From a virus: DNA of 64,000 bases. The DNA lies in IMG/VR virus record IMGVR_UViG_3300020171_000021, positions 2,972 through 66,971 of that record; one strand, written 5' to 3'. Below are positions 29,901 to 53,579 of this stretch, one piece after another. Every line of letters begins with the position of its first letter. The stretch's first letter is position 1. The notes beneath the pieces are model-generated. The model saw only the letters and a list, made by a program, of their open reading frames with translations, ran no database searches and was not told the origin of the DNA. Made by a program: the position numbers and the translations under genes.

Positions 29901-30464
29901 ATGGAGAAAAGAAGTTATCTGCTTGCTTCAGTCCCAACAAAAACGATTGAATTACCAAAGGACGAAGGAGCTAAAAATCGGAAAGTAGCTGAAATACTCA
30001 AACAGATGGCTTTAAATTCAAGAAAGTCAAGATTAGTTCGACAATTCACTATTCAAATCATAAAAAAGCGCGGTGTACCGCCAAAAGATTATATGGGTGA
30101 AATACGCGCAGTTTATGAATATGTTCGTGATGAAGTAGATTATCGTAGGGATGCAACTTTCTTAGACACCTTTGTAACACCAGATAGAATGGTACGCGAT
30201 ATATTGTTTGCACAAGGTGCAGCAGATTGTGACGATAAAGCACTTCTACTCGCCTCTATGCTCTTGCATATAGGGCAAATACCACGATTTGTACTGACAA
30301 ATAATACGCCTGGTGGAAGTTATTCACATATTTATGTTCAGGTCAAACATCCAAAGACTGGTGAATGGATTGGATTAGAAACTACGGAACCAGTGGAAAT
30401 GGGTTGGGAGTGCCCTACATTTAAACGTGGGATAATCAATATAATAGAAAAAGAAGAGAGGTGA
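29901..30464 (+). CDS. Transglutaminase-like cysteine protease (candidate maturation protease)
   Basis: YEYVRDEVDYRRD, ADCDD (Cys), SHIY (His) and WIGLET (acidic) form a papain-like triad pattern. Confidence 0.85.
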   Translation: MEKRSYLLASVPTKTIELPKDEGAKNRKVAEILKQMALNSRKSRLVRQFTIQIIKKRGVPPKDYMGEIRAVYEYVRDEVDYRRDATFLDTFVTPDRMVRDILFAQGAADCDDKALLLASMLLHIGQIPRFVLTNNTPGGSYSHIYVQVKHPKTGEWIGLETTEPVEMGWECPTFKRGIINIIEKEER

Positions 30465-36406: not shown

Positions 36407-38419
36407 ATGCTAAATATTGATGCTGAATTTAATGAATTATTGCTTGTCTTTAGACCAAACCCACGTGGACTGGGTGCAATAGGCGAATTTGGCGAATTTG
36501 GGTCAGCATTGGGAGAACTCTCTGCCGTTGAACAAGAAATACATGCACAGTGGAGAGGGATAGTTAAATCTGGATTGGGAGAATTGTCAGATATTACAGC
36601 GGATATTGCAGCAGCAAAAGCAGCAATTTCAAAAGCAACAGATATTGGTGGGCAAATAAATTCATTAAAAAGTAGAATTTCACGATTACAAAATAAAATT
36701 GCTAAAGTTAAAAATCCAGCAGCAAAAGCAAAAATTCAAAGTAGATTAACAGCAGCATTGCCACAATTAGCTATTGCAGAGGGCGCATATAATGCAATGA
36801 AATCAGTAGTAGGAGCCGCTACAGATTTTCTTAAAAATGCAGGTATAGCGGTTGAAGAAGCAAAAAAAGCAGTTGTTGAAACTGCTGGCAAAGCAAGAGA
36901 AAAAGCAATGGAAGTTGTTGGGAAGGCAAAAGAAATGGCTGTAGCTGCTGGAGAAAAAGTAAAAGCAGCAGCAGGTGCAGCAGCAGCAGCAGCAAAGGCA
37001 GCAGCGGTAAGAGTAAAAGCAGCAGCAGGTGCAGCAGCAGCAGCAGCAAAGGCAAAAGTTGCTCAAGTTGGTGTAAAAGCAAAAGCAGTTGCAGCGGCGG
37101 CGGCGGCAAGAGCGGCACAGATGGCGGCGGCAGCAAAGGCTGCAGCGGCTCAAAAGGTAGCCCAAGCAAGAGCAATGGCTGCCGCAGCAGCACAAAGAGT
37201 TCAACAAGCGGCAGCAGCAGCACGTGCGAGAGCAGCACAGATAGCAGCTCAAGCGGCGGCGACAGCAAGAGCTCGGGCACAAGCAGCAGCACAAAGAGTT
37301 CAACAAGCGGCAGCAGCAGCAGGTGCAGCAGCTGCGGCGGCGGCAGCAAGAGCAGCACAAGTAGCTGCGTCCGCACGTGCAGCAGCCGCAAGTGCAGCGT
37401 CAAAAGTTAAATCGTGGTTTGGATTTAAGGGACTTGAAGAATATAACGGACTTGGAGTAGTATTTACAGCTGGTGCAGCAACTCTTGCAATTACTGCAGC
37501 AATGGCAGCATTACAAATAGCCAATATGTATATTGGGCAAGGAGAAGCGGTTCCAGAAGATAGCACAGCAATTCCAGAAACTATCCCTATGGTAGAAATG
37601 GAAAAATATAAAGATGCGGCTGCTGATTGTTATAATTCTGCAGTAGCTCAAGGATATAAGGTTGATACTGCTGAAAAATCTGCATTGCTTGAAAAAACTT
37701 GCAGAGAAAGAGCAGCAGTACAATTTGCTGTACCATCTGATATGATTCCATATACAGGTACAGATTTAATAGATGAATTTGAAGTTCCTCCAGGATATAC
37801 TCCAGGAGTAGATTATCCAATTCAATTACCAGAAGGCGGCGGATGTTTTAGTTTATCTACAGGAATGCCGGAACCTTGCAGAGATGTGGAACCATATGTT
37901 CCTCCAGGAGGATATACACCAGGATATGATATTCCAACTGGAGATTATTATCCAGAGCAACCATTACCAGATGGAAGAAGAATTATTTATCCTACGCCAA
38001 GTGAACCAGGAATTTATGATGAATTTGAAACTTTAGTTCCGGGTATGGAACCAGTTCCAGGATATCCGCCAGGTATGCCAACAACCGTTCCAAGTTATCC
38101 TCCAGGTGTGACTCCATCATATCCAGGTTATGAACCAGGTATAACTCCATCTTATGAACCAGGAGCACCACCAACTTATGCACCAGGTGTAGAAATGCCA
38201 TCAGGTGTAGAATGTCCAGATTATCCAGATATGACTGATGCTGAATATTGTTCATATTTTCCACAATGTTGTGAAGACATTCCAGAGGGATGCCCAGATA
38301 TTCCAGATATGACCGATGACGAATATTGCGCAAACTTCCCACAATGTTGTGAAGAAGCAGGTGAAGCAGAAACTGGTAAATCACCTTGGGAATTTGACAC
38401 AGGCATATTTGGGTTTTGA
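36407..38419 (+). CDS. Large low-complexity putative virion protein
   Basis: Ala-rich coiled coil, hydrophobic segment, Pro/Gly/Tyr repeats and two CPDxPxMxDxEYCxxxPxCC repeats. Confidence 0.8.
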   Translation: MLNIDAEFNELLLVFRPNPRGLGAIGEFGEFGSALGELSAVEQEIHAQWRGIVKSGLGELSDITADIAAAKAAISKATDIGGQINSLKSRISRLQNKIAKVKNPAAKAKIQSRLTAALPQLAIAEGAYNAMKSVVGAATDFLKNAGIAVEEAKKAVVETAGKAREKAMEVVGKAKEMAVAAGEKVKAAAGAAAAAAKAAAVRVKAAAGAAAAAAKAKVAQVGVKAKAVAAAAAARAAQMAAAAKAAAAQKVAQARAMAAAAAQRVQQAAAAARARAAQIAAQAAATARARAQAAAQRVQQAAAAAGAAAAAAAARAAQVAASARAAAASAASKVKSWFGFKGLEEYNGLGVVFTAGAATLAITAAMAALQIANMYIGQGEAVPEDSTAIPETIPMVEMEKYKDAAADCYNSAVAQGYKVDTAEKSALLEKTCRERAAVQFAVPSDMIPYTGTDLIDEFEVPPGYTPGVDYPIQLPEGGGCFSLSTGMPEPCRDVEPYVPPGGYTPGYDIPTGDYYPEQPLPDGRRIIYPTPSEPGIYDEFETLVPGMEPVPGYPPGMPTTVPSYPPGVTPSYPGYEPGITPSYEPGAPPTYAPGVEMPSGVECPDYPDMTDAEYCSYFPQCCEDIPEGCPDIPDMTDDEYCANFPQCCEEAGEAETGKSPWEFDTGIFGF

Positions 38420-38425
38420 GGAATT

Positions 38426-38875
38426 ATGACAAAAATACTATACAATAGAGCAGCAAAAACTTTTATGGATGCTATTAGCGCAGGATTTGACGAAGATGGT
38501 GCTTATGAAAAAGTAAAGAAGAAGCACGGAAAAGTATTAGCAGATGCGGTTTATGCTGAGGCATTAACTGAAATGAAGGCGATGAAGAAAAATCCACGCG
38601 AAAGACTCGACGTTGTTAAGAATCAAAAAGGTGTAATAAGAATAAATCCAGCCCAATTAAGTATTCTTGTTGACGCACATCGGTCAAAATCAGGATTTTG
38701 GTATGCAAAATCTGAAACCCAGTCAATGAACGCAGCAAAATTAGCATCGAAAGATATGCTTAAACGGGTTCCAAACCAAAATCGCGAAGGATATAAATTA
38801 ACTGATAAAGGTAAATCACTATTAGAAAGATTTTTAAAATCAGTTCATCAATCAGGAAAAATAAGAAGAGATTAA
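38426..38875 (+). CDS. Basic NP-motif protein with winged helix
   Basis: KKNPR; YKLTDKGK wing motif. Confidence 0.7.
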   Translation: MTKILYNRAAKTFMDAISAGFDEDGAYEKVKKKHGKVLADAVYAEALTEMKAMKKNPRERLDVVKNQKGVIRINPAQLSILVDAHRSKSGFWYAKSETQSMNAAKLASKDMLKRVPNQNREGYKLTDKGKSLLERFLKSVHQSGKIRRD

Positions 38876-38876
38876 C

Positions 38877-39101
38877 ATGGCAGCACAGAAAAACTACAGC
38901 AAATACATAGAGTCCGCAATTCGTGAATCTGAAGAACGTGATATACCCACAATACTAAGTAAAACTGGAGTTATAAACAGAAAAGAACTTATAAAATTTT
39001 TAAATCACGAAGTTAATCTTGCAAAAAAACCTGCAAAAAAAGGAGACGCTTATTCAGCAGGATATATGGATGCAATGAAGTCAGTTAGAGAATTTATTTA
39101 A
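38877..39101 (+). CDS. Hypothetical protein
   Basis: Tightly packed ORF in the operon. Confidence 0.65.
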   Translation: MAAQKNYSKYIESAIRESEERDIPTILSKTGVINRKELIKFLNHEVNLAKKPAKKGDAYSAGYMDAMKSVREFI

Positions 39102-39104
39102 AGA

Positions 39105-40193
39105 ATGATTAACATGGCAGCAAAAAGAAGAGATTATTTTAAATTAAAAGGTAGTGAAGCCTTTCAAGTAGACAGGACTGGGGCTCCATTAGGCGAGCTT
39201 GGAATATCAATACCAAGTCTAACAGATTTAACAAATTTTTTGTCAAATGCAAAGAAAGTTTTGTCAGACACCACAAAATTGGGTGCAAGATTACAAAATA
39301 TAAGAAACGCAATCGGTAAAATAAAAACCACCAGTGTTCGAAATAATATTGCGCAGAGATTTGCATCTGCGTCTGCAAAATTTACCACAATTTCAAAGCA
39401 ACTTGATATTATACGAAAAGCTTATTCTGCTGCCGTTAATATAATCAATTCTATAAAAGGTGCGGTTGGACTTAGAGGATTACGTGGAAACGGACTTGGA
39501 CTGTCTCCACAAGCACTTGCATTAATTCCTACAGTTATAAAAGGAATATCAGTTCTTGCCATTGCAGTTGGAGCAATATACACCATAAATAATTATCTTA
39601 GTATGGTTGAAAAGGATATTGCAAAACAGATTCAAATAGAACAAATTACAGCGGCTAGAGAGAAAGAAGCAACACAGGCAGATATTTATAGACACCAGCA
39701 AGAGGCAATTTATGAATATCAGGTACAGCAGCCCGCCGTATCAGAATGTCCGGATTTGCCGCAAATGAGCGATGCTGAATATTGTGCAAGATATCCAAAC
39801 TGCTGTGAAGCTGCGCCAGAGTGTCCAGATTTACCGCAGATGAGTGACGAAGAGTATTGTGCTAGATATCCAGATTGCTGTGAAGCTGCAGAAGGCGGGG
39901 GATTTTGGGGTCTTAGTGGAAGAGACCAGAGATGGGATAATGTTCCGCATGTAAGACGCATCGGTGTAAAGATGGCAGGACTTTCAGCAAGGAATAGGAT
40001 GTATGATAATAAACCCGAACATCAAGTCGCAAGAATTCAAGGACTTGGGTCATCGTCAGACCAGAACAGAATGAATCGCAGAAAGATGGGACTTGAGAAA
40101 GCAAGAGACCAGAGATGGGATGTCTTAAGACAAGCACGGCTCAGCGGAATATTCCAGCAACTAAAGAAAGCAATGACAGAGGCAGGTATTTAA
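39105..40193 (+). CDS. Paralog of 36407: putative membrane-associated virion protein
   Basis: Same order of GELG, coiled coil, GLG plus hydrophobic helix, and two CPDLPQMSDxEYCARYPxCC repeats. Confidence 0.8.
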   Translation: MINMAAKRRDYFKLKGSEAFQVDRTGAPLGELGISIPSLTDLTNFLSNAKKVLSDTTKLGARLQNIRNAIGKIKTTSVRNNIAQRFASASAKFTTISKQLDIIRKAYSAAVNIINSIKGAVGLRGLRGNGLGLSPQALALIPTVIKGISVLAIAVGAIYTINNYLSMVEKDIAKQIQIEQITAAREKEATQADIYRHQQEAIYEYQVQQPAVSECPDLPQMSDAEYCARYPNCCEAAPECPDLPQMSDEEYCARYPDCCEAAEGGGFWGLSGRDQRWDNVPHVRRIGVKMAGLSARNRMYDNKPEHQVARIQGLGSSSDQNRMNRRKMGLEKARDQRWDVLRQARLSGIFQQLKKAMTEAGI

Positions 40194-40194
40194 C

Positions 40195-40392
40195 ATGACA
40201 ACAAAAATAATAAAAATCACGCATAAACAATTTGATGCGTTGCATGAGGCTATGTTTTCTGATAGATATTTAATACAGAGTCAATCAGACCGTAGAACCG
40301 CGAAAACTTTGGAAACAAAAGGACTTTTGAAAGAAAGTAAACAAAGAGATGATGTATATCATCTAACTGTTAAAGGAAAAACACTTTTTTAA
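40195..40392 (+). CDS. Small winged-helix protein
   Basis: LETKGLL...YHLTVKG. Confidence 0.65.
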   Translation: MTTKIIKITHKQFDALHEAMFSDRYLIQSQSDRRTAKTLETKGLLKESKQRDDVYHLTVKGKTLF

Positions 40393-40449
40393 AAAGTATT
40401 TTCCAAAAAGTATTCCGAGGAATAAATAATTATAGAACCAGGATTTAAT

Positions 40450-40809
40450 ATGGCAAGAATTTTAGCACAGAATCCAATTGAAGCAGCACTTTATGAAATG
40501 GAACATCTTGGGCTTGGTGATATTGGTGTGCTTGTTAGAAAAACAACTGCACCAACATCAAGACGAAAAACTGCAGCAGTAACAAGAATTCTTCCAGCAG
40601 GCGGAGTAGGTGCAAAACCAAGAACAGCAGCAGAGATTCAGCTGGAATCAGAACGCATCAAAGCAGAGACGGTGTCAAAAACTCAACCATCGCTTATTGA
40701 GTCTACAATGCAACCTTTTATTCAACTTGGCATGATAGGCATTGGCGCCATTCTTGCAGTGAACTTGCTTCCCCCGATTCTTGAAGCAATAAGTAAAAAG
40801 AGGAATTAA
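40450..40809 (+). CDS. Membrane-anchored basic protein
   Basis: NP and GLG motifs; C-terminal TM. Confidence 0.7.
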   Translation: MARILAQNPIEAALYEMEHLGLGDIGVLVRKTTAPTSRRKTAAVTRILPAGGVGAKPRTAAEIQLESERIKAETVSKTQPSLIESTMQPFIQLGMIGIGAILAVNLLPPILEAISKKRN

Positions 40810-40810
40810 A

Positions 40811-41113
40811 ATGAAACTTTTAAACATGCTAATTTCAGCATTTAATGAAATAGATGGAACAGCTCCAGAATATAGAGCTGCAGTGTATGGTAATGGCAGA
40901 TTGGGAGCAATAAGTCCAGCTGATATGTATAAACAATACCAAACAAGAACACAATTTAAAATGCCTTCTATTTGGGGAACAGCAAAAAAAGTAATCAGTG
41001 CACCATTTAAAAAATTCCAGGAAAGACAATCTGCAAAAAAGAAAACAAGAGGAACATATCCGTCCTTACCAGTAACCATTTTGCCGAGAAGCAGAAGCAG
41101 AAATAGAAGGTAA
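40811..41113 (+). CDS. Basic protein
   Basis: Arg/Lys-rich C-terminus; RLGAIS. Confidence 0.65.
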   Translation: MKLLNMLISAFNEIDGTAPEYRAAVYGNGRLGAISPADMYKQYQTRTQFKMPSIWGTAKKVISAPFKKFQERQSAKKKTRGTYPSLPVTILPRSRSRNRR

Positions 41114-41116
41114 AAC

Positions 41117-41395
41117 ATGAGTAAATTTTTAAAAAATTTTATAAAATCTGTTGAAAATTTTAATATAATGTTATCAAAAGATGACGGTGGTAAATTATTA
41201 AAAAAAAATATCAGAAATGTTATTGCACAACGGTCTGAAGAAGAAGAAGATGGTGCCAAACAATATGATAAATATGCACAAGAATTAAAAGATTATGGTG
41301 CACCAACAGAAATAGTAAACGCGTTTCGTTTGATGGCATTAGATGAATTTCAACATCATTTTATTTTAAATAGATTACTTTATGGATTAAAATAA
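41117..41395 (+). CDS. Half-ferritin/rubrerythrin-like protein
   Basis: EEEDGAKQY...DEFQH (ExxH) helix pair. Confidence 0.6.
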   Translation: MSKFLKNFIKSVENFNIMLSKDDGGKLLKKNIRNVIAQRSEEEEDGAKQYDKYAQELKDYGAPTEIVNAFRLMALDEFQHHFILNRLLYGLK

Positions 41396-41650
41396 ATGCC
41401 AGAAAATCTCTATAAGCGGTTTCATCATAAAAATCCAGACCGAGTTCAAAAACTTGAATTTGAAGTTCCAAAAGAACTTACTCGGCTTGGTGTTATTACT
41501 GCCATAGAGTATAAAGCCACTCCTCCATCAAAATTTACTGAAGGAACATATCGTCATGAATTTAAGAAGCCAAAATTACTTGCAGCAGATAAGAATGGCG
41601 TTCTATATGTTATAAAAGTAAAAATAACCAAACGGGGGATTGAAGGTTAA
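41396..41650 (+). CDS. Hypothetical basic protein
   Basis: YKRFHHKNP...YRHEF...ITKRGIEG. Confidence 0.7.
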   Translation: MPENLYKRFHHKNPDRVQKLEFEVPKELTRLGVITAIEYKATPPSKFTEGTYRHEFKKPKLLAADKNGVLYVIKVKITKRGIEG

Positions 41651-42024
41651 TGTTTAAATTTTTCAAAAAAACAAAACCAAAACCTGAGCCTGTTCGACTT
41701 GAAGACCTAATCATAAAAACAAGACAAGTTCGTCCTGGTGTATGGCGTGATAATCCCAGAAAAACTGGCTATACTGAACAGCCATCAGAAAAAGATTGGA
41801 AAGAATTTGATGCATATGAAAAAAGAATAGAAGCACGTCACGCTCAAATAAAACAAAATCCCAGATTAAAAGGTCATCATAAAATTTATATTATTCGAAC
41901 AATGGCCGGTATTCCACTTGGGGCATACGGCGGTCTTGAACTTACAAAAAAATATGCTCAGAAATGGGCAGATAGAACAAATGAACAAATAGCAATTGAC
42001 GTTATGACGGTGCCAAAGAAATGA
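41650..42024 (+). CDS. NP-motif protein
   Basis: RDNPRK and KQNPRL. Confidence 0.7.
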   Translation: MFKFFKKTKPKPEPVRLEDLIIKTRQVRPGVWRDNPRKTGYTEQPSEKDWKEFDAYEKRIEARHAQIKQNPRLKGHHKIYIIRTMAGIPLGAYGGLELTKKYAQKWADRTNEQIAIDVMTVPKK

Positions 42025-42527
42025 CAATACAAGAAGACAGCACAAAACATTATCCTGGATTTAAAGGCGGCGCAAAACGTCCAACGTATGAATTCAGATA
42101 CATAAAAGTTCCTGGTGGGCATAATCACATAAAAGATGAACCTGGATTGTCCACTTTTGTTAAAACAAAATATACGATTACATTCACGTATTACGGCAAA
42201 AAGAAAAAGCAGGTAGTTTGGGCAAAGGATGAAAAAGAAGCATTTGAAATGATAAATGACCTTTATCCAGGAATCAAGGGGTCATTGAAGAAAAATCCAC
42301 GTGGCGCCGGTATTCCGATTAATTCAATGCAACTTGACTTAATGGTAAATGCACATAAACAAAAAGCAGTTTATACAGATAATAACAAAGAAAGAATTGC
42401 AATGATACGACTGGTTATTAGTGGACTTATGTGCCCAACCGATAAAGAAGGAGACATATATAAACTTACTTCACATGGAAAAAAATTATTAATTGAATAT
42501 CTTAAAGAACAGGAGAAATACACATGA
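42021..42527 (+). CDS. NP-motif protein with winged helix
   Basis: KKNPRG; YKLTSHGK. C-terminal half resembles that of 38426. Confidence 0.7.
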   Translation: MTIQEDSTKHYPGFKGGAKRPTYEFRYIKVPGGHNHIKDEPGLSTFVKTKYTITFTYYGKKKKQVVWAKDEKEAFEMINDLYPGIKGSLKKNPRGAGIPINSMQLDLMVNAHKQKAVYTDNNKERIAMIRLVISGLMCPTDKEGDIYKLTSHGKKLLIEYLKEQEKYT

Positions 42528-43294
42528 TTCATCAGGGAATAACAATTCTTGACCAAAATTTAAAACCATGTGATTCTATAGGAATTGGCGGAGATTGGAA
42601 AGTAAAAATTTTAGACAAGATTGTCAATTGGGCTAAAAATCAGGATACAAAAATTGTGTCAGTGGTAAGACTTGTTCATCCAGGAGAAGCGGCAGCATTT
42701 GGTGTTGATGATACTATTAGTATTGGAACTCAAGGGACAGGAACTGTAAAATTTGGAATTTGGAAAGTATATGGCGATGTGTCAACAATTCCAAAAGGTA
42801 ATCCTAGACTTACTCAGGAGGAATTACATAAAAAATATTTAAATGTTGCAAAAGATTATTATATTAAGGCTTCTGATGTGAAAAGATGGGAGAAAATAAA
42901 AAAACAATCATATCGTCCATTTACTCCAAATACTCATTATATTCCATTTACTAAATCAAATCCCAGAAAGAAAGAAATGAACATGGGTGCACCTGATAAA
43001 AAAGCTTCACTGTCAAAAATATTAGATGAAATTGACGAAACGCCAAATGAATATAGATTCAGAATGATGCCACCAAGTAAATTCCACGAAGATAGTCTCA
43101 AATACGGCAGCAAATCAATTACCACAGGCGTCCGTGCAATTTATGGATGTTTAAAAGATGCATGGGCACCACGATTACAAAAATGTAAAAAAGGCATGGT
43201 TATGCAGTCATTACGATTAAGCAAAGATGTATTTCATTCAGCAACTGAAGCAGCAGGATGGATTGCAAAACATACAAAACCCAGGAGAGAATAA
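42524..43294 (+). CDS. Multidomain NP-motif protein
   Basis: KGNPRL and KSNPRK separate apparent domains. Confidence 0.7.
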   Translation: MIHQGITILDQNLKPCDSIGIGGDWKVKILDKIVNWAKNQDTKIVSVVRLVHPGEAAAFGVDDTISIGTQGTGTVKFGIWKVYGDVSTIPKGNPRLTQEELHKKYLNVAKDYYIKASDVKRWEKIKKQSYRPFTPNTHYIPFTKSNPRKKEMNMGAPDKKASLSKILDEIDETPNEYRFRMMPPSKFHEDSLKYGSKSITTGVRAIYGCLKDAWAPRLQKCKKGMVMQSLRLSKDVFHSATEAAGWIAKHTKPRRE

Positions 43295-43296
43295 TT

Positions 43297-43533
43297 ATGT
43301 CAAAATTTAATCAAGCAATATTTGTCGGTGGAGCGTTAGGCGCACTTGTTGTTATCTTAGGATATGCAGCAATAAAAGACTATAAAAATTATCGCAATCA
43401 GCCTCCATTAACAACAGTATCGAGATTTGGAAATAAATCCAGATTTGCATTAGATGGATTGGGAGTAGGAAAAAGTTATACCTTCCCAAGAAATTCAATG
43501 CCGGTAGACCCAACATTTGTGAAAGAGGTTTAA
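43297..43533 (+). CDS. Small membrane protein
   Basis: N-terminal TM; LDGLG motif. Confidence 0.65.
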   Translation: MSKFNQAIFVGGALGALVVILGYAAIKDYKNYRNQPPLTTVSRFGNKSRFALDGLGVGKSYTFPRNSMPVDPTFVKEV

Positions 43534-43601
43534 ATTCTTTAGTTTTTACCAAAAGGTTATAAACCACAAAAAGAAAATAGTATCATATAAACAGAGGAAA
43601 A

Positions 43602-43832
43602 ATGTCAGAATTACCATTAAAGCATTATATTATCTTAGCCGGATTGTTGTTTACAGTAGGTATAGCTACTAATTTAATTGGTGCATATGCTTGGAATACG
43701 TATTTGAATAAACAAAAAGAAAAAACAATCATAGCAAAATTAACAGCTATTCGTGCAGCGCAAATAAGAAAAGGGAATAGTTATACCGCAGCACATTCAG
43801 CAAGAATTATAGAAGGAGATAGGCGATATTAA
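43602..43832 (+). CDS. Small membrane protein
   Basis: N-terminal TM and basic tail; TATA and GAGG upstream. Confidence 0.65.
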   Translation: MSELPLKHYIILAGLLFTVGIATNLIGAYAWNTYLNKQKEKTIIAKLTAIRAAQIRKGNSYTAAHSARIIEGDRRY

Positions 43833-43984
43833 TGACTGACACTAAATCTTTTCTCTGGGTATTTATACTTGGACTTGGAAGTGCTTTTTTAGCAAATCAT
43901 GTTTATCAGACGTATGTAATTGACAAACCAGTAACCAAAAAACAAATTGCAGATACTATGGATAGAAAACTTAAGGTGGTTTAA
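43832..43984 (+). CDS. 50-aa membrane protein (not in ORF track)
   Basis: MTDTKSFLWVFILGLGSAFLAN... fills the gap exactly. Confidence 0.6.
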   Translation: MTDTKSFLWVFILGLGSAFLANHVYQTYVIDKPVTKKQIADTMDRKLKVV

Positions 43985-44236
43985 ATGTCAAAAATTCTTA
44001 ATGAACTAAGACACGTAACTAATACAGACCTAAAGAAAATAGAACACATAATGAAAAAAGATATTGACGTTCTTGAAGAGATGAGCGAACGAGACCACGC
44101 GTGGAGCAAAAATTTAGAAAAAGTTGGCTACAAAGATTTAGCTAAATTTTACAAAGGGTTAGCAGAAAAAGCCACAGAATTATCAGAAGAGTACATATCA
44201 CTTCAAGTTGAAATTGATGAAAGAAAGGAAATGTAG
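43985..44236 (+). CDS. Helical hypothetical protein
   Basis: Coupled ORF with a helix-hairpin pattern. Confidence 0.6.
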   Translation: MSKILNELRHVTNTDLKKIEHIMKKDIDVLEEMSERDHAWSKNLEKVGYKDLAKFYKGLAEKATELSEEYISLQVEIDERKEM

Positions 44237-44245
44237 GTGACTACC

Positions 44246-44368
44246 ATGGGTAAGAAAATCGGCGAAGAGAAAATCAAAAAGAAAGATGGATATATCTATT
44301 ATGTAGGTAAAGATGGATACGTCCACGAAGCAAAGATGAATAGAAAAGGAAGAAAGAAGGGAACTTAA
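44246..44368 (+). CDS. 40-aa CC1-like chromatin/DNA-binding protein (not in ORF track)
   Basis: KIKKKDGYIYYVGKDGYVHEAKM resembles the CC1 repeat unit; AGGTGA RBS. Confidence 0.6.
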   Translation: MGKKIGEEKIKKKDGYIYYVGKDGYVHEAKMNRKGRKKGT

Positions 44369-44527
44369 ATGAAACTAGATTTAATAAACATGGCCGCTCT
44401 CGGTATCATATCATATCTTGGATATAAAGCATTCTCAGAAGGTATTCCGTCAGACCAGATGGCACAAAGTGTTACTGCAGCACCCGCAATGGTTCGTAAA
44501 GTTGTAAGACGACGGGTCAGCGCATAA
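44369..44527 (+). CDS. 52-aa membrane protein (not in ORF track)
   Basis: MKLDLINMAALGIISYLGYKAF...RKVVRRR. Confidence 0.6.
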   Translation: MKLDLINMAALGIISYLGYKAFSEGIPSDQMAQSVTAAPAMVRKVVRRRVSA

Positions 44528-44558
44528 ATTAAATTTTGAAAACGGAGAAAGACCCCGT

Positions 44559-44873
44559 ATGGACTCAGCAAAAATATTAGAAAAACTTTCAAATGATATG
44601 TCAACAGTAACCGCTGGAATGACAGACATGAGAGCGGAGTTAGGGGTCGTGTCAACAAAAGTTGACCATTCGATTGAAATTCACGAAACCATTTGTAAAT
44701 ATCATGAGTCACAATTTAAAACTCATGACGAACAAATAGAACAATTGCAAAAAGACCAAAAAGACATAAATCAATCTATGTCGGCTTCCGCGGGGGCATT
44801 AAAATTAAGTTCTTGGCTCGTTGCAACGGTGATTACCCTAGTTGGTATTTATATTGCATTTGTTCCTAAATGA
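44559..44873 (+). CDS. Coiled-coil protein with C-terminal TM
   Basis: Heptad pattern followed by WLVATVITLVGIYIAF. Confidence 0.7.
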   Translation: MDSAKILEKLSNDMSTVTAGMTDMRAELGVVSTKVDHSIEIHETICKYHESQFKTHDEQIEQLQKDQKDINQSMSASAGALKLSSWLVATVITLVGIYIAFVPK

Positions 44874-44910
44874 TTAAATACTTGGCATACATATAAAGAG
44901 ATAAGAAGAA

Positions 44911-45153
44911 ATGGCAGCATACGACGAAGAAATTGCAAGAAATCTTTACGGTTTACAAGAAATGATTCAATGTCAATCAAAGCCAGCTTCTGCACCTGTT
45001 TCGGTTATGAGAACAATGCCAAGACAAGGGCAGAGTGTCGGAATTTCTGATGGAACTGTTGTAAAGTTTGCAATGATTGTTGGAATAATGGTCGTTGCAT
45101 ATATGATGATAAAAGGTTCATCAAATTATTCTCATCAAGGTAGAAGAAATTAA
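44911..45153 (+). CDS. Small membrane protein
   Basis: C-terminal TM. Confidence 0.65.
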   Translation: MAAYDEEIARNLYGLQEMIQCQSKPASAPVSVMRTMPRQGQSVGISDGTVVKFAMIVGIMVVAYMMIKGSSNYSHQGRRN

Positions 45154-45161
45154 AATAAAAG

Positions 45162-45719
45162 GTGATTATTATTGTAGCATCGGTCAGGGTCAAAGAAATT
45201 AACGGAGCAGCTCCAGGAACATTTGCAACAATTACAACTGCAAGATTTGCAACAATGGATTCAAACAATCCAGGAATATCAAATCCTATTCCTATTCCTA
45301 CAACAGGAGTTAGACGCGCATATAAAAAAGCATTTGCTCTTGCATTTGCAGGAACTTTCACACAAATAAATAATGTGACTATTTATACAGATGGCACTGA
45401 CTTCGGGACAGGAATTCTTACATTGATAGGTTCAAATGTAGGGGCAGGATGTCATGTACTTGGTTCATATAGAGCCGCATTAGGACAGTTAGGAGTTGAC
45501 GGGTCACTTTTAACGTATGCAAGACAGGCAGGTAGTGTAATTACAGGAACGGGTTCATTCTTTACATATACATCTGGGGCTAAAAAACTTGTTGGTTCAC
45601 AGATATTTGCAGCTGCAGGAACCACAAGGTTTGTTGCATTGCAATTAAAAGTAGGGTCAAATGCAGTGCAAGGTGTTCTTTCAAGTGAGACAATAACTTT
45701 TACGTATGACGAAATTTGA
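45162..45719 (+). CDS. Beta-rich putative virion protein
   Basis: Gly/Thr-rich beta pattern ending FTYDEI. Confidence 0.6.
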   Translation: MIIIVASVRVKEINGAAPGTFATITTARFATMDSNNPGISNPIPIPTTGVRRAYKKAFALAFAGTFTQINNVTIYTDGTDFGTGILTLIGSNVGAGCHVLGSYRAALGQLGVDGSLLTYARQAGSVITGTGSFFTYTSGAKKLVGSQIFAAAGTTRFVALQLKVGSNAVQGVLSSETITFTYDEI

Positions 45720-45727
45720 GGTGAATC

Positions 45728-46057
45728 ATGAAAGGGTTTGATTCACTTGCATATATTTGGTTAGCAGAATATCGCGATGGTGCAATATTAAAACAATTTG
45801 AAATTGATGGAAAAGAACATCTTTTTTCTGAAGTTGACCAATTAAAATTAAAAAGATTTGGATGGATTCCAGTTGACTCTAGTTTAAAGCCAATCAGTAT
45901 TTCTCTTAATGAAGGAGATAAATTAATTTGTTATAGAAAGAATTTTCTTTCTTTTATGACTGGTGCTCAAAGTGTAGTATTCGTTCTTGGAAAAATAGGA
46001 CATCCATTAATTTGGATATTTGCAGATGAAATTGTAATTACAGAGGAAAATATATGA
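45728..46057 (+). CDS. Hypothetical protein
   Basis: GAGGTGA RBS. Confidence 0.7.
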   Translation: MKGFDSLAYIWLAEYRDGAILKQFEIDGKEHLFSEVDQLKLKRFGWIPVDSSLKPISISLNEGDKLICYRKNFLSFMTGAQSVVFVLGKIGHPLIWIFADEIVITEENI

Positions 46058-47229
46058 CTGATTTGGTAACAAATTTTGGAAAAGCAACAGTTTCACTTGG
46101 ATATCTTTCTACTGATTTAACAATAGTTCTCACAGCTGGTCACGGAGCAAAATTTCCATCAGCCGCGACTGCTAACAGTGCAACACATTTTAATGTTGTT
46201 TATTATAATTCAACAGATTATCCAGACCCAGCAGATGACCCTAACGTTGAAATTGTTCGAATTACAAATCGTTCTACTGATACATTAACTGTTGTTCGTG
46301 CACAAGAAGGAACAACTGCAACCGATAAAAATATTGCAGGAAAAACATATAAAATGATTCTTGCGCCAACAAGAAAAACAATTTTAGATTTACAAATAAA
46401 AGAACCTTCTGAATATGTTACAACAGTGTTACATGGAAACACTCCTCATAGAGATGCAGGTGTAGCATTTACCATTGGCTCTTTTATGAAATATGGAAAC
46501 ATAAAAAAACTTACAATTCGCGGAAGTTATACATGTGGAACTTTATATTCTTGGGCGGCGTATGCAAGTAATTTAACAGGAATAACTCCAGCGCTTGGAA
46601 GTATTGCATTTTATGGAAAAACTGGAACGGTAATCATTGATGATTATGTTGGTTTGGATAATGAAATTATGCGAATCTCTGGAACCGCTGGAGCATATCT
46701 TACTGTAACTAGAGGCGTGAAAGGTACAAACCCCACTTATCACGAACACGCTGCAGTTATAACAAAAATGATAAACGGTGTTCGTGTTGCTTTATATCCA
46801 AATAGTTTTAAGAAAGAGGCAACAAAAGTTTTAGAGTTGAATAATGCCTTTATTTATTCTGGACTTACTTTTGGTTCAATTAATGTAAGTGGTACTGTAA
46901 TAAGAATGACTGCGGTACCAAGAAATCTTAATAGTAACGATTATATTTTAGTTCAAGATACAATACCAGAAACTGCAATTGTCCAGAAAACATTTGGAAG
47001 CGCAAGAGGTGCTTCAGATAATACTATATTTGTAAAAGGAACGCTTGCGCTTCATGTATCTGCAAAAAATGTTCAGAAAGTTATAACATATGACATACCA
47101 ACTCCATATAAAGGGTCTTCTAATACTTTATACGGGCATCTTTATATTGATGAAAGACTTCCTGCTGGAACAATTGGTATAACACTTGGAATTACCTGTG
47201 ATAAATTTGGAAGTATAGCACTAGGTTGA
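46054..47229 (+). CDS. Putative spike/fibre protein
   Basis: Two E-I-x-R-I...LTVxR(A/G)xxGT beta modules. Confidence 0.65.
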   Translation: MTDLVTNFGKATVSLGYLSTDLTIVLTAGHGAKFPSAATANSATHFNVVYYNSTDYPDPADDPNVEIVRITNRSTDTLTVVRAQEGTTATDKNIAGKTYKMILAPTRKTILDLQIKEPSEYVTTVLHGNTPHRDAGVAFTIGSFMKYGNIKKLTIRGSYTCGTLYSWAAYASNLTGITPALGSIAFYGKTGTVIIDDYVGLDNEIMRISGTAGAYLTVTRGVKGTNPTYHEHAAVITKMINGVRVALYPNSFKKEATKVLELNNAFIYSGLTFGSINVSGTVIRMTAVPRNLNSNDYILVQDTIPETAIVQKTFGSARGASDNTIFVKGTLALHVSAKNVQKVITYDIPTPYKGSSNTLYGHLYIDERLPAGTIGITLGITCDKFGSIALG

Positions 47230-47233
47230 TATT

Positions 47234-48070
47234 ATGCCAACCGTTGATAATAGAATTTTAGAAGCTCTGAAAAGACAGCAAGTAGTGACAGAATATATTG
47301 TTTATCCTCAACAAAATTCAAATATAGAAAATTATCAAATTTTACTTTCTAATGTTCCTTCTACGTCAAAAGAAGACGTTCTAGTTGTGCATAAAAATAA
47401 AATTATTCCGCATTGGGTGGAATCAAAAGGAAAAGTGTGGACAAAAATTCCAAACTTATTGACAAAAACACCATTAAAAATATATACATTAACTGGTAAT
47501 CCTTCTGCCGCATCCGCAAGCAACGGGACGAATACGTTTGTGGCATGGCATGGTGTAGCAACATCAAATTTTCATGATAGTAATATTATTCCATCCGGCT
47601 CAATTATATATGAGGCAAAAGGAAGGTCTACAATTGTTTCCGGTAATGAAGTATTGATGTGGGGGATAGGTGTAGATGGAAATCTTGAAATTAATTCTGG
47701 AACGGATGGTGTTGCATTAAAGTCATATGAATGGAGTAGTGTCCCTGGTAGATATTTTTTAACAACGAATGGAGCAGCATATACACAGGTTCAAGGTACT
47801 GGTGGAAAATATGGATATAATGTATGGAAACAACTTAAAATAGTTATTGATTCTACACCGAGCGCACATGGTTATGTTGACGGGGTTGAACAGGCAACTG
47901 GAATTACTACTAACTTACCGAACGAAAATTTAGGATTAGCGATGTATACCTCGGCGGGAACAATGGCTCAAGAATATTCATTTGTCCGCAAATACGCCTC
48001 GCCTGAGCCGATTGTTAAAAAAATTAGAACTTTAAATAAATCATTATTACTCAAAGAATTGATGAGGTAA
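47234..48070 (+). CDS. DUF2341-like / lectin-fold adhesin
   Basis: IPHWVE...VWTKIP...GNPSAASASNGTNTF...VRKYASPEP. Confidence 0.7.
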   Translation: MPTVDNRILEALKRQQVVTEYIVYPQQNSNIENYQILLSNVPSTSKEDVLVVHKNKIIPHWVESKGKVWTKIPNLLTKTPLKIYTLTGNPSAASASNGTNTFVAWHGVATSNFHDSNIIPSGSIIYEAKGRSTIVSGNEVLMWGIGVDGNLEINSGTDGVALKSYEWSSVPGRYFLTTNGAAYTQVQGTGGKYGYNVWKQLKIVIDSTPSAHGYVDGVEQATGITTNLPNENLGLAMYTSAGTMAQEYSFVRKYASPEPIVKKIRTLNKSLLLKELMR

Positions 48071-48073
48071 TTT

Positions 48074-48853
48074 ATGTCGTACGGCTCTTTTGAGTACGGT
48101 GGAGCTGCATATGGTGGGGCAGTTGTAGCACCAACAAAAACTATAACTTATACACTTGATGCACGTATTTTAAAACAAGCTACACTTTCATTTACAATAG
48201 ATGCACGTGTTTTAAAAACGCAATCAAATACATTTACATTAAATGCAATATTATTAAAAACGCAATCAAATACATTTACATTAAATGCAATATTATTAAA
48301 AACGCAATCAAACACATTTACACTAAATGCAGCATTATTAAAAATTGATATAAAAACCTTTACTTTTGATTCAGCATTATTTAAGTCAAATATAGTAAAA
48401 ACTTTTACCATCAGTTCAACATTATTAAAAGCAGATAATTTAAAGACATTTACTTTTGATTCTGTATTATTAAAACCTATAACAAAAACTGTTGTGTTTG
48501 ATTCAGCATTATTAAAAACTATATCGGCGTCATTTACTCTTAATGCAAATCTTTTAAAAACAAATGTAGCTCAGTTTACAATAGATTCAATTTTGGTTTT
48601 TAATCGCACAAAAACTTTTACAATAGATTCAAAATTAGTATTTTTTACCACATATACAAAAACATTTGGTCTTGATGCAAAACTTGTTTTTGCAAAGTCT
48701 ACAGTGCTTACAATAGATGCGTGGACATCATATAAGGAGCAAATATATCAGATGCAAGCAGATATTGCAGACCTTAAGGCAAATGGCGTGGGTGGTGGAG
48801 GAGACGTGACGGTTGGAACATTATATGGGTCTGACGGAATAAAGAATTGGTGA
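48074..48853 (+). CDS. Beta-repeat stalk/fibre protein (about 13 degenerate ~14-aa repeats)
   Basis: Repeating KTFTxDxxL units. Confidence 0.75.
   Translation: MSYGSFEYGGAAYGGAVVAPTKTITYTLDARILKQATLSFTIDARVLKTQSNTFTLNAILLKTQSNTFTLNAILLKTQSNTFTLNAALLKIDIKTFTFDSALFKSNIVKTFTISSTLLKADNLKTFTFDSVLLKPITKTVVFDSALLKTISASFTLNANLLKTNVAQFTIDSILVFNRTKTFTIDSKLVFFTTYTKTFGLDAKLVFAKSTVLTIDAWTSYKEQIYQMQADIADLKANGVGGGGDVTVGTLYGSDGIKNW
48212..48337 (+). repeat. 42-bp tandem repeat, three copies, in frame
   Basis: TTAAAAACGCAATCAAATACATTTACATTAAATGCAATATTA; two exact copies and one diverged. Confidence 0.9.
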
Positions 48854-49311
48854 TTAAAATGATTCATGAATTAAGAAAAAAAGGATTAATTTACATACGA
48901 AAAAGCAAAACAATTACTGCTGGAGAAATGGGAGTGTTGTTAGCAAATTGGATTTCTCCTAAATATGATGAAACTGAAGATGGTTATGAGATACAAACAA
49001 AAGCAGAAATAACACATTTAGGAAATGCCATAGCAACTAATTTATTTTATGAGATACAATACGGTGAAAAATGGCGGTTTGACTATCAAATTGCTCCTCC
49101 TAATCGTCCATTAGAATTTCCAGTTTCGTTGCCGGTTGAAACCGAGGATATAAATATTATAGTAGATAATAAAAGTACAGCAGATGCGGTTGCAGAAATT
49201 TGCTTGATTGGAATTTATGAAAGAGAAAGATTTTCAGTTATTGAAAAGAGACGGCCTACTGCAATTCATTCATCAAGATTGGCTTCGGTTGACGGAAGAC
49301 GGGTAATATGA
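48847..49311 (+). CDS. Beta-rich hypothetical protein (possible minor capsid protein)
   Basis: Beta-sandwich-like pattern ending EICLIGIYE. Confidence 0.5.
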   Translation: MVIKMIHELRKKGLIYIRKSKTITAGEMGVLLANWISPKYDETEDGYEIQTKAEITHLGNAIATNLFYEIQYGEKWRFDYQIAPPNRPLEFPVSLPVETEDINIIVDNKSTADAVAEICLIGIYERERFSVIEKRRPTAIHSSRLASVDGRRVI

Positions 49312-49937
49312 ATAAAGGAAAAAGAACAGAGGAGCAGAATAGAAAAAATTCAGAACGACAAAAAGGTAAACGAACTGGTGCAGATAATCATTTCTTTGGT
49401 AAACATCATACACTTGAAGCAAAAAAAGCAAACTCAGATTGGCATAAAGGAAAAACACAATCTGAAGAATCAAATAAAAAACGGTCTATTGCACATAAAG
49501 GCATACCTTGTTCAGAAAAAGCTAAGAAAAAAATATCGATTGCAAATATTGGTAGACGTCGCACAGAAGAACAAAAGAAGAAAATGTCAATAGCACATAA
49601 AGGAATACCTACAGGAAGAACTGGTGAAAAAAGTCCAAATTGGAAAGGCGGAATATCTTTTGAACCGTATTGTTCAAAATTCAATAAACCTTTAAAAGAA
49701 AAAATTCGTGATAAATTCGAACGGAAATGTTTTCTCTGTAATAAACCCGAGTCTACTGAAAAAACTTGTTTATCAGTTCACCACATTGATTATGATAAAG
49801 ACCAAGGATGTAATGGAAAAACTTTTGAATTAGTTCCTTTATGCAGAAGTTGTCATTCAAAAACAAATGGTGAACGAGAAGAACAACAAATTATGATTAT
49901 AAATAAATTGAGGGATATGAATGACACTTGTAACTAA
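49308..49937 (+). CDS. HNH homing endonuclease with NUMOD3 repeats
   Basis: HFFGKHHT, KKMSIAHKG and CFLC...VHHIDY...LCRSCH. Confidence 0.88.
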   Translation: MNKGKRTEEQNRKNSERQKGKRTGADNHFFGKHHTLEAKKANSDWHKGKTQSEESNKKRSIAHKGIPCSEKAKKKISIANIGRRRTEEQKKKMSIAHKGIPTGRTGEKSPNWKGGISFEPYCSKFNKPLKEKIRDKFERKCFLCNKPESTEKTCLSVHHIDYDKDQGCNGKTFELVPLCRSCHSKTNGEREEQQIMIINKLRDMNDTCN

Positions 49938-50199
49938 AACAAATATGGTAACAAAACCTAGCGGTGATTATTTTTATACTTATATTCCTTCTGAAATTGC
50001 ACAAAAGTTAGGATTAAGAAAAGGACAAGAACATCTTATATGGGGGTTGTATGGAAGTAAAGCAGAGATTACAACATTACCACTTGATGTTGCAAGAAAA
50101 ATTCTTTCTGATATTCAACCACAAATTACTACTGCTACTAAAAAATCGCCAAGAATTTTTATTAAAAATGGTAGAGCTACCGATGACGATTTGATTTAA
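49921..50199 (+). CDS. AbrB/SpoVT-like regulator
   Basis: YIPSEIAQKLGLRKG. Confidence 0.7.
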   Translation: MTLVTKTNMVTKPSGDYFYTYIPSEIAQKLGLRKGQEHLIWGLYGSKAEITTLPLDVARKILSDIQPQITTATKKSPRIFIKNGRATDDDLI

Positions 50200-50344
50200 G
50201 CTAAAAACCGTACATTGACCGTACTTTCTTTTTTGAACCGTGGCTTTACTATTAATAAAAAACATAGTATCGGTAACAATAAAAAGTTCTGTGTAGACGT
50301 TCTGTCTACAAATCAATCAATAAATAAATAAAAGAGGTAAAAAT

Positions 50345-50803
50345 ATGTATGGCGAGTCACTCATGTTAGTGAACCCAAGAAAGACATCTAAGCGTTCAAT
50401 GCTTGGAAAACTTGGAATGGGCGGAAAATTGACCAGAGGCGTCACAATCTACGACGCAGCGACAGGCGCAGCGGGCGCAGTTGTAGTATTGGTACTTCCA
50501 AAAATGGCACCCAGCGGGTGGGGCTATGGCATCAAAGGTGTCATGACTTCAGCACTAGTAACGGTAGCCGCAGGGGCAGTAACCTATATGGCAACAAAGA
50601 ACAACAGATACGCATACGCAGTAGTTCTCGGCGGAGCAATCATCACGGGCCTTAGGGCATTGAAGGTTATCACCAAGACAGCAGGCGTAAGACCGATTGG
50701 TCTCGAAGGTGCAGAAATGGCCGGACTTGGGCAAATCCCAGAGGAAGAGCTTCTTACCGGTATCGACGCATATCGTAGCGATGATTCAGTAAAGGTGTTA
50801 TAA
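50345..50803 (+). CDS. Major membrane-associated virion protein candidate
   Basis: VNPRK, three hydrophobic helices and MAGLG; C-ending codons suggest high expression. Confidence 0.65.
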   Translation: MYGESLMLVNPRKTSKRSMLGKLGMGGKLTRGVTIYDAATGAAGAVVVLVLPKMAPSGWGYGIKGVMTSALVTVAAGAVTYMATKNNRYAYAVVLGGAIITGLRALKVITKTAGVRPIGLEGAEMAGLGQIPEEELLTGIDAYRSDDSVKVL

Positions 50804-51373: not shown

Positions 51374-51439
51374 ATAGGTGAATAAAATGGCAAAGACGTT
51401 TTATATCTTAGGAGAAATAACCCCGAAGCGCCCCGGCGA
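51374..51439 (+). repeat. 66-bp exact direct repeat, copy 1 (copy 2 at 52132-52197)
   Basis: ATAGGTGAATAAAATGGCAAAG...CCCCGGCGA. Confidence 0.9.
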
Positions 51440-51770: not shown

Positions 51771-51771
51771 G

Positions 51772-52143: not shown

Positions 52144-52144
52144 A

Positions 52145-53120: not shown

Positions 53121-53579
53121 ATGGCAGAAGAAGGCGCAAACGCACCCAAAATCATTATAGTAAGGAAGGAAATTTATAATCCTTCCCTTGAAAGATACGT
53201 GTCAGAAGAACTTCCAACCGTTACGGTAAACAGGCAGAGAATACGACCATCATGCACAGCCAATGCGGCATTTGCATCCCATTACATTGGGTCAGGCACC
53301 GCAGCAACTGGAGCAGGAACTGTAGGATACGGTTCAGTTGGTAGACTTGTTTATTTGAATATATTCACCACACAGCCACAGACATTCTATATGAAGGACA
53401 GAAAAGGCACCCTTGGGTTCCATAACTTCATAGCAGCTGGTGAGAAGACAATTCAAGGTGAAGCAGGAAAACCCATACGTGTTGTAGAAGGAACATTCAT
53501 CATTGCGGGTCTCGGCTCGTTACCTGGTGGAACTTATACAATAGACTTCGAACTTGTTAAAAGGAGTCAGAAGTGGTAA
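53121..53579 (+). CDS. Beta-rich putative virion protein
   Basis: Gly/Thr-rich beta pattern; hairpin plus T-tract after the stop. Confidence 0.6.
   Translation: MAEEGANAPKIIIVRKEIYNPSLERYVSEELPTVTVNRQRIRPSCTANAAFASHYIGSGTAATGAGTVGYGSVGRLVYLNIFTTQPQTFYMKDRKGTLGFHNFIAAGEKTIQGEAGKPIRVVEGTFIIAGLGSLPGGTYTIDFELVKRSQKW

Follow-up and report, generated by a model that had tools for sequence, protein, structure and literature searches.

A recurrent GLG motif in proteins encoded downstream of a transglutaminase-like enzyme gene in uncultured viruses: a probable processing signal

Maturation of virion proteins by a protease that cuts at a consensus site is textbook knowledge for adenoviruses, poxviruses and tailed phages. 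Here we describe a short Gly-Leu-Gly (GLG) motif and a transglutaminase-like enzyme encoded in a 64,000-nucleotide stretch of viral DNA (the window; bases 2972-66971 of the 66,971-base IMG/VR virus record IMGVR_UViG_3300020171_000021, CheckV completeness 60%), a pair that a sequence-only reading of positions 36407-50803 had likened to the adenovirus system. The adenovirus protease (AVP, adenain) has the consensus (M/I/L)XGX-G or (M/I/L)XGG-X, as that reading stated (PMC3386624), and the adenovirus protein pVI is cut at IVGL-G, a site that includes GLG (PMC4246237, PMC3386624). Proteases are also described on the transglutaminase fold. LapG cuts at Ala-Ala and so releases an anchored protein (PMC10990149), and the B (B2) protein of lasso-peptide systems is a transglutaminase-homologous cysteine protease that removes an N-terminal leader (PMC10368454).

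The window enzyme, 29901 (proteins are named by the first base of their gene), is a 187-amino acid (aa) protein encoded at 29901..30464 on the + strand. A profile search with the enzyme identified 21 other IMG/VR loci, with a GC content of 0.51-0.68 and on contigs of up to 182 kb. When all open reading frames (ORFs) of the window were compared with these loci by tblastn, the enzyme was the only shared protein. The 21 loci together contain 119 GLG tripeptides against 69.7 expected. A first set of 17 loci, without the near-duplicates L010, L012 and L014 and without L020, in which the offset differs, served to compare ORFs upstream and downstream of the enzyme gene. In the downstream + strand ORFs GLG occurs 68 times against 25.1 expected (p 1e-12), while the upstream ORFs contain 13 against 12.7 expected. 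GLG ranks first among all 8000 tripeptides on the downstream side, where it is present in 50 of 128 ORFs. Protein families with GLG in at least half of their members make up 7/8 of the downstream families and 1/13 of the upstream families (Fisher 5e-4), and the sole downstream family without GLG is the one that resembles window protein 41396.

The motif and the downstream/upstream test were then fixed, and a broader enzyme alignment yielded 13 new loci, seven of which form a separate lineage with contigs of ~29-35 kb. After removal of L072 and L073, which are 80% and 97% identical to others, the replication set of 11 loci contains 45 GLG tripeptides in 97 downstream ORFs, as compared to 18.1 expected (p 7e-8). 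GLG was again the first-ranked tripeptide and is present in 9 of the 11 loci. Co-occurrence of the enzyme with the motif in other viruses, which the sequence-only reading had proposed as a check, is thereby borne out in both sets. We examined eight loci from bacterial metagenome-assembled genomes (MAGs) that encode full-length enzyme relatives, and in four of them GLG is in excess downstream (observed/expected 7/1.8 in L026, 7/2.0 in L030, 4/1.5 in L028 and 2/0.7 in L024); L023, the Streptomyces sp. locus L025, L027 and L029 have no such excess. Three complete genomes show no excess genome-wide (34/31.0 in G004, 21/21.9 in G008 and 34/28.5 in G020). Archaeal chromosomal loci with weak enzyme matches contain 12 GLG against 28.3 expected, and the control phage loci 4 against 8.1 (HRTV-27) and 3 against 3.3 (a cyanophage). 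The independent viral loci place the GLG excess beyond chance: GLG is a genuine short linear motif that marks mostly membrane-anchored proteins encoded downstream of the enzyme gene.

The motif extends beyond the three residues. At 65 sites of the first set, P or G prevails at −3, V, F, I or L at −2 and A or S at −1 (A/S in 27/65), followed after GLG by A, V or D at +1, A, I, D or V at +2 and Pro at +3 (20/65, 4.6-fold). The extended motif is hydrophobic-[A/S]-G-L-G-x-x-P. In the replication set Pro occupies +3 at 8 of 45 sites and Gln occupies +1 at 7 of 45. Window sites that match this context are EMAGLGQIP in 50345, IIAGLGSLP in 53121 and GNGLGLSP in 39105. GLG prevails at two positions within the proteins. 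The first is directly before a transmembrane helix, as in PPVAGLGLAP followed by the helix or PGLG followed by the helix and RRRR, and is seen in three families of other viruses and in window proteins 36407 and 39105. The second is near the N-terminus after a short conserved leader, as in MTFS...WVPRRLGLG and MSYSGLG; the first 40 residues hold 20 of 68 GLG sites vs 16.3% of residues. Many of the tagged proteins end in a transmembrane helix with Lys/Arg.

In the window, a hydrophobic helix is present in 8 of the 28 + strand ORFs of 36407-50803, and GLG is found in 5 of these 8 as compared to 1 of the 20 ORFs without a helix (Fisher 0.003). Every GLG tripeptide listed by the sequence-only reading is present, in 36407, 39105, 40450, 50345 and 43297 (for which we use a longer ORF starting at 43258), and its placement of GLG directly ahead of the hydrophobic helix holds in both 36407 and 39105; the LGELG and MAGLS that it added for 39105 are present but are not GLG. 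36407 (36407..38419, +) is a 670-aa membrane protein with a helical, Ala-rich N-terminal part, a transmembrane helix at aa 348-369, and a Pro-rich C-terminal part with a Cys motif. Its GLG sites lie at aa 21 (36467-36475), aa 56 (36572-36580) and aa 348, the start of the helix (37448-37456), the first of them immediately after an Asn-Pro-Arg (NPR) tripeptide at 36458-36466. The sole 36407 homolog, P0007, keeps RGLG, SGLGEL and the pre-helix KGLGELG, with NSR replacing NPR. 39105 (39105..40193, +) is a 362-aa membrane protein of paralogous architecture with the helix at aa 135-162 and GLG at aa 130 (39492-39500, GNGLG-LSP, directly before the helix) and aa 313 (40041-40049, IQGLG). It has four close homologs (70-85% identity) and a more distant one, P0005 (241 aa). 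The pre-helix G[L/I]G is kept in all five (P0001-P0005), and reads GLKGLG in P0005. This conservation among relatives of the window virus is suggestive, in few sequences. No relatives of 39105 were found in a scan of viral contigs with the single protein or in a scan of metagenome contigs with the 39105 family, and a 39105-like protein was found in 0/21 enzyme-bearing records, a search whose empty answer carries no weight. An archaeal class III (prepilin-like) signal, considered as a comparison for the 'G-LSP + hydrophobic' arrangement in 39105, was set aside, as 130-350 residues separate the motif from the N-terminus. Proteins 36407 and 39105 also share a Cys-rich unit, CPDxPxM(S/T)DxEYCxx(F/Y)PxCCE, in two tandem copies in each (BLASTP E 6e-24; 38150-38360, aa 583-651 of 36407, and 39690-39890, aa 195-262 of 39105). 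The unit has no Pfam match and is single-copy in homologs P0002-P0004.

The remaining GLG-bearing proteins are smaller. 40450 (40450..40809, +, 119 aa) has GLG at aa 21 (40510-40518, HLGLG) and a C-terminal transmembrane helix that starts with MIGIG and is followed by a KKRN tail. 43258 (43258..43533, +, 91 aa) is N-terminally anchored and has GLG at aa 67 (43456-43464, LDGLG), and 43832 (43832..43984, +), a 50-aa hydrophobic ORF of uncertain coding status, has GLG at aa 14 (43871-43879, ILGLG). 50345 (50345..50803, +) is a 152-aa membrane protein with an N-terminal LMLVNPRK (NPR at 50372-50380), a basic stretch, transmembrane segments and a C-terminal tail; its GLG, at aa 127 (50723-50731), is the one in EMAGLGQIP. 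A similar N-terminus, LLLINPRR(K/R) with a basic region, recurs in L030_10148 and L066_9517. 53121 (53121..53579, +, 152 aa) lies beyond 36407-50803, with its GLG at 53508-53516.

Protein 29901 matches the Pfam family PF01841 (Transglut_core) over residues 63-159 (E 2.5e-8, 34.6 bits vs a cut-off of 23), as do all of its seven homologs (36-90% identity). The sequence-only reading had described it as a Cys-His-Glu protein of another family than adenain, and both parts are upheld. Cys110 (30228-30230), His143 (30327-30329) and Glu160 (30378-30380) do not vary in any of the 8 aligned sequences, and all 11 distant relatives keep the Cys and the His, with D or E as the third residue (by eye); the Pfam and fold searches lead to transglutaminase-like proteins, with no adenain entry among the matches listed. 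An AlphaFold2 (AF2) model of 29901 (predicted local distance difference test, pLDDT, 79.6) has a papain-like alpha+beta core. Its VIA Z scores are highest with 3kd4, a putative protease (10.9), factor XIII (10.0), transglutaminase TG2 (9.0) and 3isr (8.6), followed by PNGase (8.2), LapG (7.1), PeiP (6.8), PeiW (6.5) and CPR-C4 (6.2). The top Foldseek matches are all of transglutaminase-like fold, with a best E of only 1.8e-3. Judged by its predicted structure, 29901 is certainly a transglutaminase-fold protein. A Kyte-Doolittle hydropathy scan found no hydrophobic segment in it, and in six other loci (L068, L069, L072, L073, L074 and L076) the enzyme carries a C-terminal transmembrane helix with a basic anchor. 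A sequence search of the PDB with the enzyme profile gave no relevant protein at E <= 1, a single-protein scan of viral contigs gave no relatives of 29901, and the 'phages' collection contained no match to 29901 or to window protein 50805. A 121-aa ORF at 31016-31381, 550 bases past the enzyme gene, contains HEAIHIRGLEH (31262-31294), an exact HExxHxxGxxH zinc-site pattern. Its only matches are weak and YbeY-like (Pfam E 0.006; PDB 1oz9 E 0.26), and it is possibly a second hydrolase; a comparison of cluster hidden Markov models (HMMs) gave no relatives of it in the other enzyme-bearing loci.

A second window protein recurs with the enzyme in other loci. 41396 (41396..41650, +) is an 84-aa protein ending in ...RGIEG. 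By phmmer it matches L009_16441 (E 5.9e-5) and L028_9100 (E 1.7e-4), and an HMM of a cluster of six proteins matches it with E 8.2e-5 (alignment by eye). Cluster HMMs were built from 41 loci, and window proteins were matched only by those of the enzyme family and the 41396-like family. At L029 1772-2896 a single ORF encodes a transglutaminase-like domain followed at the C-terminal end by a 41396-like domain that ends in ITERGIEG, a fusion that argues for a functional link. Enzyme, tagged proteins and 41396-like partner are parts of one module, found again in several uncultured viruses and virus-like elements that are otherwise unrelated.

A second short motif, NPR, mostly in the form [K/R]-x-N-P-R-[K/R/G], shows a much stronger enrichment than GLG within 36407-50803 (8 against 0.36 expected, p 5e-9, a level reached in 0 of 400 shuffles). 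Besides the copies in 36407 and 50345, it occurs in the ORFs 38426-38875 (aa 56), 41650-42024 (aa 35 and 70), 42021-42527 (aa 92) and 42524-43294 (aa 93 and 146). Downstream of the enzyme gene NPR is found 15 times against 3.2 expected in the 11 new loci, where RKN, KNP and NPR rank 2, 3 and 5 among tripeptides, and 8 times against 3.8 in the first set. The ORFs 38426-38875, 40195-40392 and 42021-42527 share a C-terminal domain of ~65 aa (...Y(K/H)LT.(K/H)GK.L..., by eye), which follows KKNPR in two of them and constitutes the whole of 40195.

Because the tag recurs just after the enzyme gene in unrelated viruses, GLG is probably a processing signal of the transglutaminase-like enzyme. We propose that 29901 may be a site-specific cysteine protease that recognizes [A/S]GLGxxP and would process the tagged proteins at the membrane during particle assembly, in some cases removing short N-terminal leaders and in others cutting at the edge of the membrane anchor. 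The enzyme would then both read the motif and cut there, and the tagged proteins would be virion components; the virion role, and synthesis as precursors or polyproteins as the sequence-only reading envisaged, are conjectural. The idea of a protease is supported by the proven proteases LapG and CPR-C4 being among the nearest folds. That 29901 itself cleaves at GLG is a tentative proposal to which we give somewhat less than an even chance.

A number of observations weigh against this proposal, beginning with the counts in the window. In a window gene set of 109 ORFs (20,052 aa), crudely derived from the longest ORFs with greedy removal of overlaps, the 28 + strand ORFs of 36407-50803 (4628 aa) contain nine GLG, in six ORFs, against 1.96 expected from per-protein composition (nominal Poisson p 2e-4), as compared to six, in 6 of 81 ORFs, against 4.78 in the remaining window. 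GGL and LGG, which have the same composition, are each found a single time in 36407-50803, indicating that residue order counts beyond composition. The excess at 36-51 kb that the sequence-only reading anticipated is therefore visible, but not its significance after correction: the motif was selected after inspection of the window, GLG comes only 10th when the tripeptides of the region are ranked by enrichment, and at least one tripeptide reached an equally low p in 42% of 400 per-protein shuffles, so the window alone is no proof beyond chance. The adenain consensus fared likewise. MAGLG, IQGLG and LDGLG fit its first form as had been noted, but across the 28 ORFs [MIL]xGxG is found 8 times against 4.66 expected and the GG-X form, [MIL]xGGx, not once against 4.66, and M, I or L stands at P4 in only 4 of 9 window GLG sites.

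Perhaps, then, the window count reflects chance or composition, and the signal across viruses is a by-product of relatedness among loci and of crude ORF calling. The shuffles agree with this, as does the location of 5 of the 9 window sites in 36407 and 39105, two proteins that are built alike. Members of one lineage are related rather than independent loci and have conserved orthologous sites in common, which counts by family and per lineage mend in part; some ORFs in the crude sets are spurious in high-GC DNA; only a few control loci, the two phage loci, lack the enzyme; and GLG is mildly enriched in the 68 upstream ORFs of the replication set as well (12 against 7.0). Against this explanation, GGL and LGG are flat downstream of the enzyme gene (23 and 32 against 25.1 expected in the first set, 18 and 17 against 18.1 in the replication set), GLG holds the first rank among tripeptides in two separate sets, the excess is confined to the downstream side, and it was replicated in loci obtained after the motif had been fixed. 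We consider an artefact very improbable.

Further points against cleavage concern the sites themselves. GLG is often repeated within one N-terminal region (three copies in 80 aa in L074_13078, four in L011_12606), the two GLG sites of 39105 flank its transmembrane helix on opposite sides, and the Leu is not strict, as GIG occurs in P0004, GMG in L006, and P0005 has FGLS where 39105 has IQGLG. In the bacterial-MAG loci 'IHNIAGLG' lies within a conserved and probably folded domain. Neither a cleavage product nor a split gene nor a proteomic datum came to light. GLG may instead be a real but uncut signal for docking or assembly, or a flexible hinge beside the membrane, that binds a partner in the capsid, membrane or scaffold, with the enzyme doing other work such as lysis, modification of host proteins or cross-linking. 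Clustered copies resemble multivalent binding motifs and fit docking at least as well as cleavage, many GLG sites abut transmembrane helices, and the 41396-like family could be the motif's reader. The enzyme fold is as near to non-proteases as to proteases and is shared by viral lysins of the PeiW/PeiP type (Z 6.5-6.8). On the other side, the enzyme is the only recognizable catalyst that recurs with the motif, its gene and the tagged genes share a strand, with its gene immediately upstream, its catalytic Cys-His pair is invariant, and in the six loci named above it is membrane-anchored beside membrane-anchored tagged proteins. Docking with no cut is a possible explanation, and on balance an unlikely one.

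The conserved domain just mentioned, ...TGRELQN.PIHN(I/V)AGLG..G.RPF...PRSTIR...GYK(I/M)L, is found in the enzyme-bearing loci of three bacterial MAGs or genomes (L028 12307-13764 and 13795-15135, L025 9822-10877 and L026 6466-7215), as a tandem double copy in L028 12307-13764. It has no Pfam match and could be a capsid-type protein.

The fold does not set the chemistry of the enzyme either. The model of 29901 is equally near to cross-linking transglutaminases (Z 10.0 and 9.0), to PNGase and to proteases, which is another point against cleavage, and acyltransferases likewise share the fold; 29901 could be a protease, a cross-linker, an amidase or an acyltransferase. Because cross-linkers, PNGase and acyltransferases have this fold in common, protease activity is something that we infer. 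The enzyme might, for example, be a transpeptidase or cross-linker, sortase-like or a true transglutaminase, that forms a thioester at GLG and transfers the protein to an amine of a virion protein or to a lipid. A motif followed by a transmembrane helix and a basic cluster is the tripartite layout of a sortase-type sorting signal, and some C-termini have it (PGLG...helix...RRRR in cluster 14, and GIG, helix and KKRN in 40450); TG2/TG3 and factor XIII are among the best fold matches (Z 10.0-8.8). However, 36407 and 39105 have long domains past the helix so that the signal is not C-terminal there, many GLG sites are N-terminal or distant from any transmembrane helix, and there is no known acceptor. 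Transfer of this kind appears improbable to us, and processing by cleavage is the reading that we retain.

The genome in which the module lies has almost all of its genes on the + strand and a GC content of ~0.35. Among its proteins Pfam recognizes a DNA polymerase of family B (20404), a primase-helicase of the D5 type (25530), an RFC-like clamp loader (7712) and an RNA ligase (9358), together with several glycosyltransferases. Against phage and archaeal-virus records the polymerase reaches no more than 28% identity, with haloarchaeal tailed viruses as the best full-length matches. No capsid, portal, terminase or tail-tube family was found among ~40 window proteins scanned with Pfam and PHROGs. 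The label 'structural' for the 36-51 kb proteins is thus an assumption, and structure is hinted at only by 46054, whose N-terminus gives a short match to tail-fibre PHROGs. For the P-loop protein 35315(−) the matches were confined to generic AAA families. Protein 50805 gave a poor AF2 model (pLDDT 49.6), its Atlas model resembles the PM2 P2_C cluster at a TM score of 0.49 only, and a scan of viral contigs with the 50805 family alignment found no relatives; the Atlas gave no usable lead for 39105.

Among ORFs next to the enzyme in other loci, PHROGs matched 0/10 in one batch and weakly 3/10 in a second (a ribonucleotide reductase, E 9e-12, and two families without a known function). With Pfam, 0/10 were matched in one batch; elsewhere it gave one match far under cut-off (E 0.0099), and in a further 10 ORFs it found Transglut_core in three enzyme-containing ORFs (L023, L029 and L026) and nothing in the other seven. 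HK97 capsid and Terminase_6N families were found in 0/5 complete genomes. A Pox_A32 search returned sub-threshold P-loop matches only, and a search for capsids of nucleocytoplasmic large DNA viruses, with no match anywhere, was uninformative. The complete viral genomes G004 and G020 (L046-L052 and L059-L065, 136-138 kb), which have no Pfam HK97-capsid or Terminase_6N match, encode long repeat proteins of the (PTG)n type, and PTG, TGP and GPT occur 172 times in G004 against 19 expected.

Several other window ORFs attracted our attention. Three tandem paralogs of 112-130 aa (51378-51770, 51763-52143 and 52136-52474), which start with MNKM(A/V)KTFYI and end in F(N/D)F(M/V)A(I/Y)GE, adjoin 50805 in the highest-GC stretch of the window (0.40-0.43) and are possibly major structural proteins; 51378, the one paralog scanned, had no family match. 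A 259-aa ORF at 48074-48853 consists of fibre-like units of ~14 residues (TFTLNA.LLKTQSN), which account for the enrichment of TFT, KTF and LLK in the region, and adjoins both 46054 and 47234 (DUF2341). Four ORFs dispersed between modules (33425-34027, 34743-35318, 49308-49937 and 55119-55769) have the look of homing endonucleases with repeated K-rich 'HKG(K/R)' units, and 55119 matches HNH endonuclease PHROGs (E 2.6e-11).

Taken together, enzyme, 41396-like partner and membrane-anchored proteins tagged with [A/S]GLGxxP and (R/K)KNPR might constitute an undescribed morphogenetic module of large, apparently non-tailed viruses of prokaryotes, in which the enzyme would mature the particle by cutting or transpeptidating at GLG; we offer this larger picture as speculation that is rather unlikely to hold in full. 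The proteins of these uncultured viruses are without Pfam or PHROG matches, and GLG together with KNPR provides a sequence tag for picking probable substrates or virion proteins in such genomes. The pairing of enzyme and motif across viruses that share almost nothing else is a testable handle on their assembly. A search of the literature, supplementary files not covered, turned up neither an account of a transglutaminase-like enzyme that is paired with a motif in prokaryotic viruses nor a prior description of consensus-site maturation by an enzyme of this fold.

The described enzymes of the same fold each share part of this arrangement. LapG, one of the bacterial transglutaminase-like cysteine proteinases (BTLCPs), is like 29901 in fold (Z 7.1 as above, 120 residues aligned, rmsd 4.6; Foldseek E 3e-3) and has a target of small residues, as GLG would be, but LapG is periplasmic, calcium-dependent and has one giant adhesin as substrate, whereas 29901 has no transmembrane segment predicted by the hydropathy scan and would have another target motif; no sequence-level relation between the two was found. 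Many GLG sites are N-terminal, and the lasso-peptide B protein removes an N-terminal leader. That protein, however, belongs to the biosynthesis of RiPPs (peptides made on the ribosome and modified after translation) and has a single small substrate, and 29901 has no Pfam match to such a family (E <= 0.01). PeiW and PeiP of methanogen viruses are virus-encoded as well, and 29901 has a weak BFVD match to the Pei of psiM2, but as cell-wall lysins they cleave an isopeptide bond, with no known link to a protein motif. They are also larger and carry wall-binding repeats. The Pei Z scores for 29901 are below those of many other members of the fold, and no Pei family is among its Pfam matches at E <= 0.01. 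Protein 29901 is a member of the transglutaminase-like superfamily whose relation to LapG, Pei and lasso B is seen at the level of the fold only.

The likeness to adenain lies elsewhere. In both systems a virus-encoded cysteine enzyme accompanies a short Gly-rich motif that recurs in several viral proteins, and MAGLG, IAGLG, IQGLG and LDGLG in the window match the first form of the adenain consensus. Adenain is activated by DNA together with a peptide cofactor. In contrast to adenain, the window enzyme is transglutaminase-like, there is no enrichment of the consensus as a whole and no instance of its GG-X form, the preferred context is [A/S]-GLG-x-x-P, the hosts are of prokaryotic type, and cleavage is a conjecture of ours. 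The system thus resembles adenovirus maturation in outline and is not a member of that family, as the fold differs and the consensus test failed. If GLG is indeed processed, the cut would free proteins from leaders and anchors, and the module would be the functional counterpart of adenovirus maturation on another fold.

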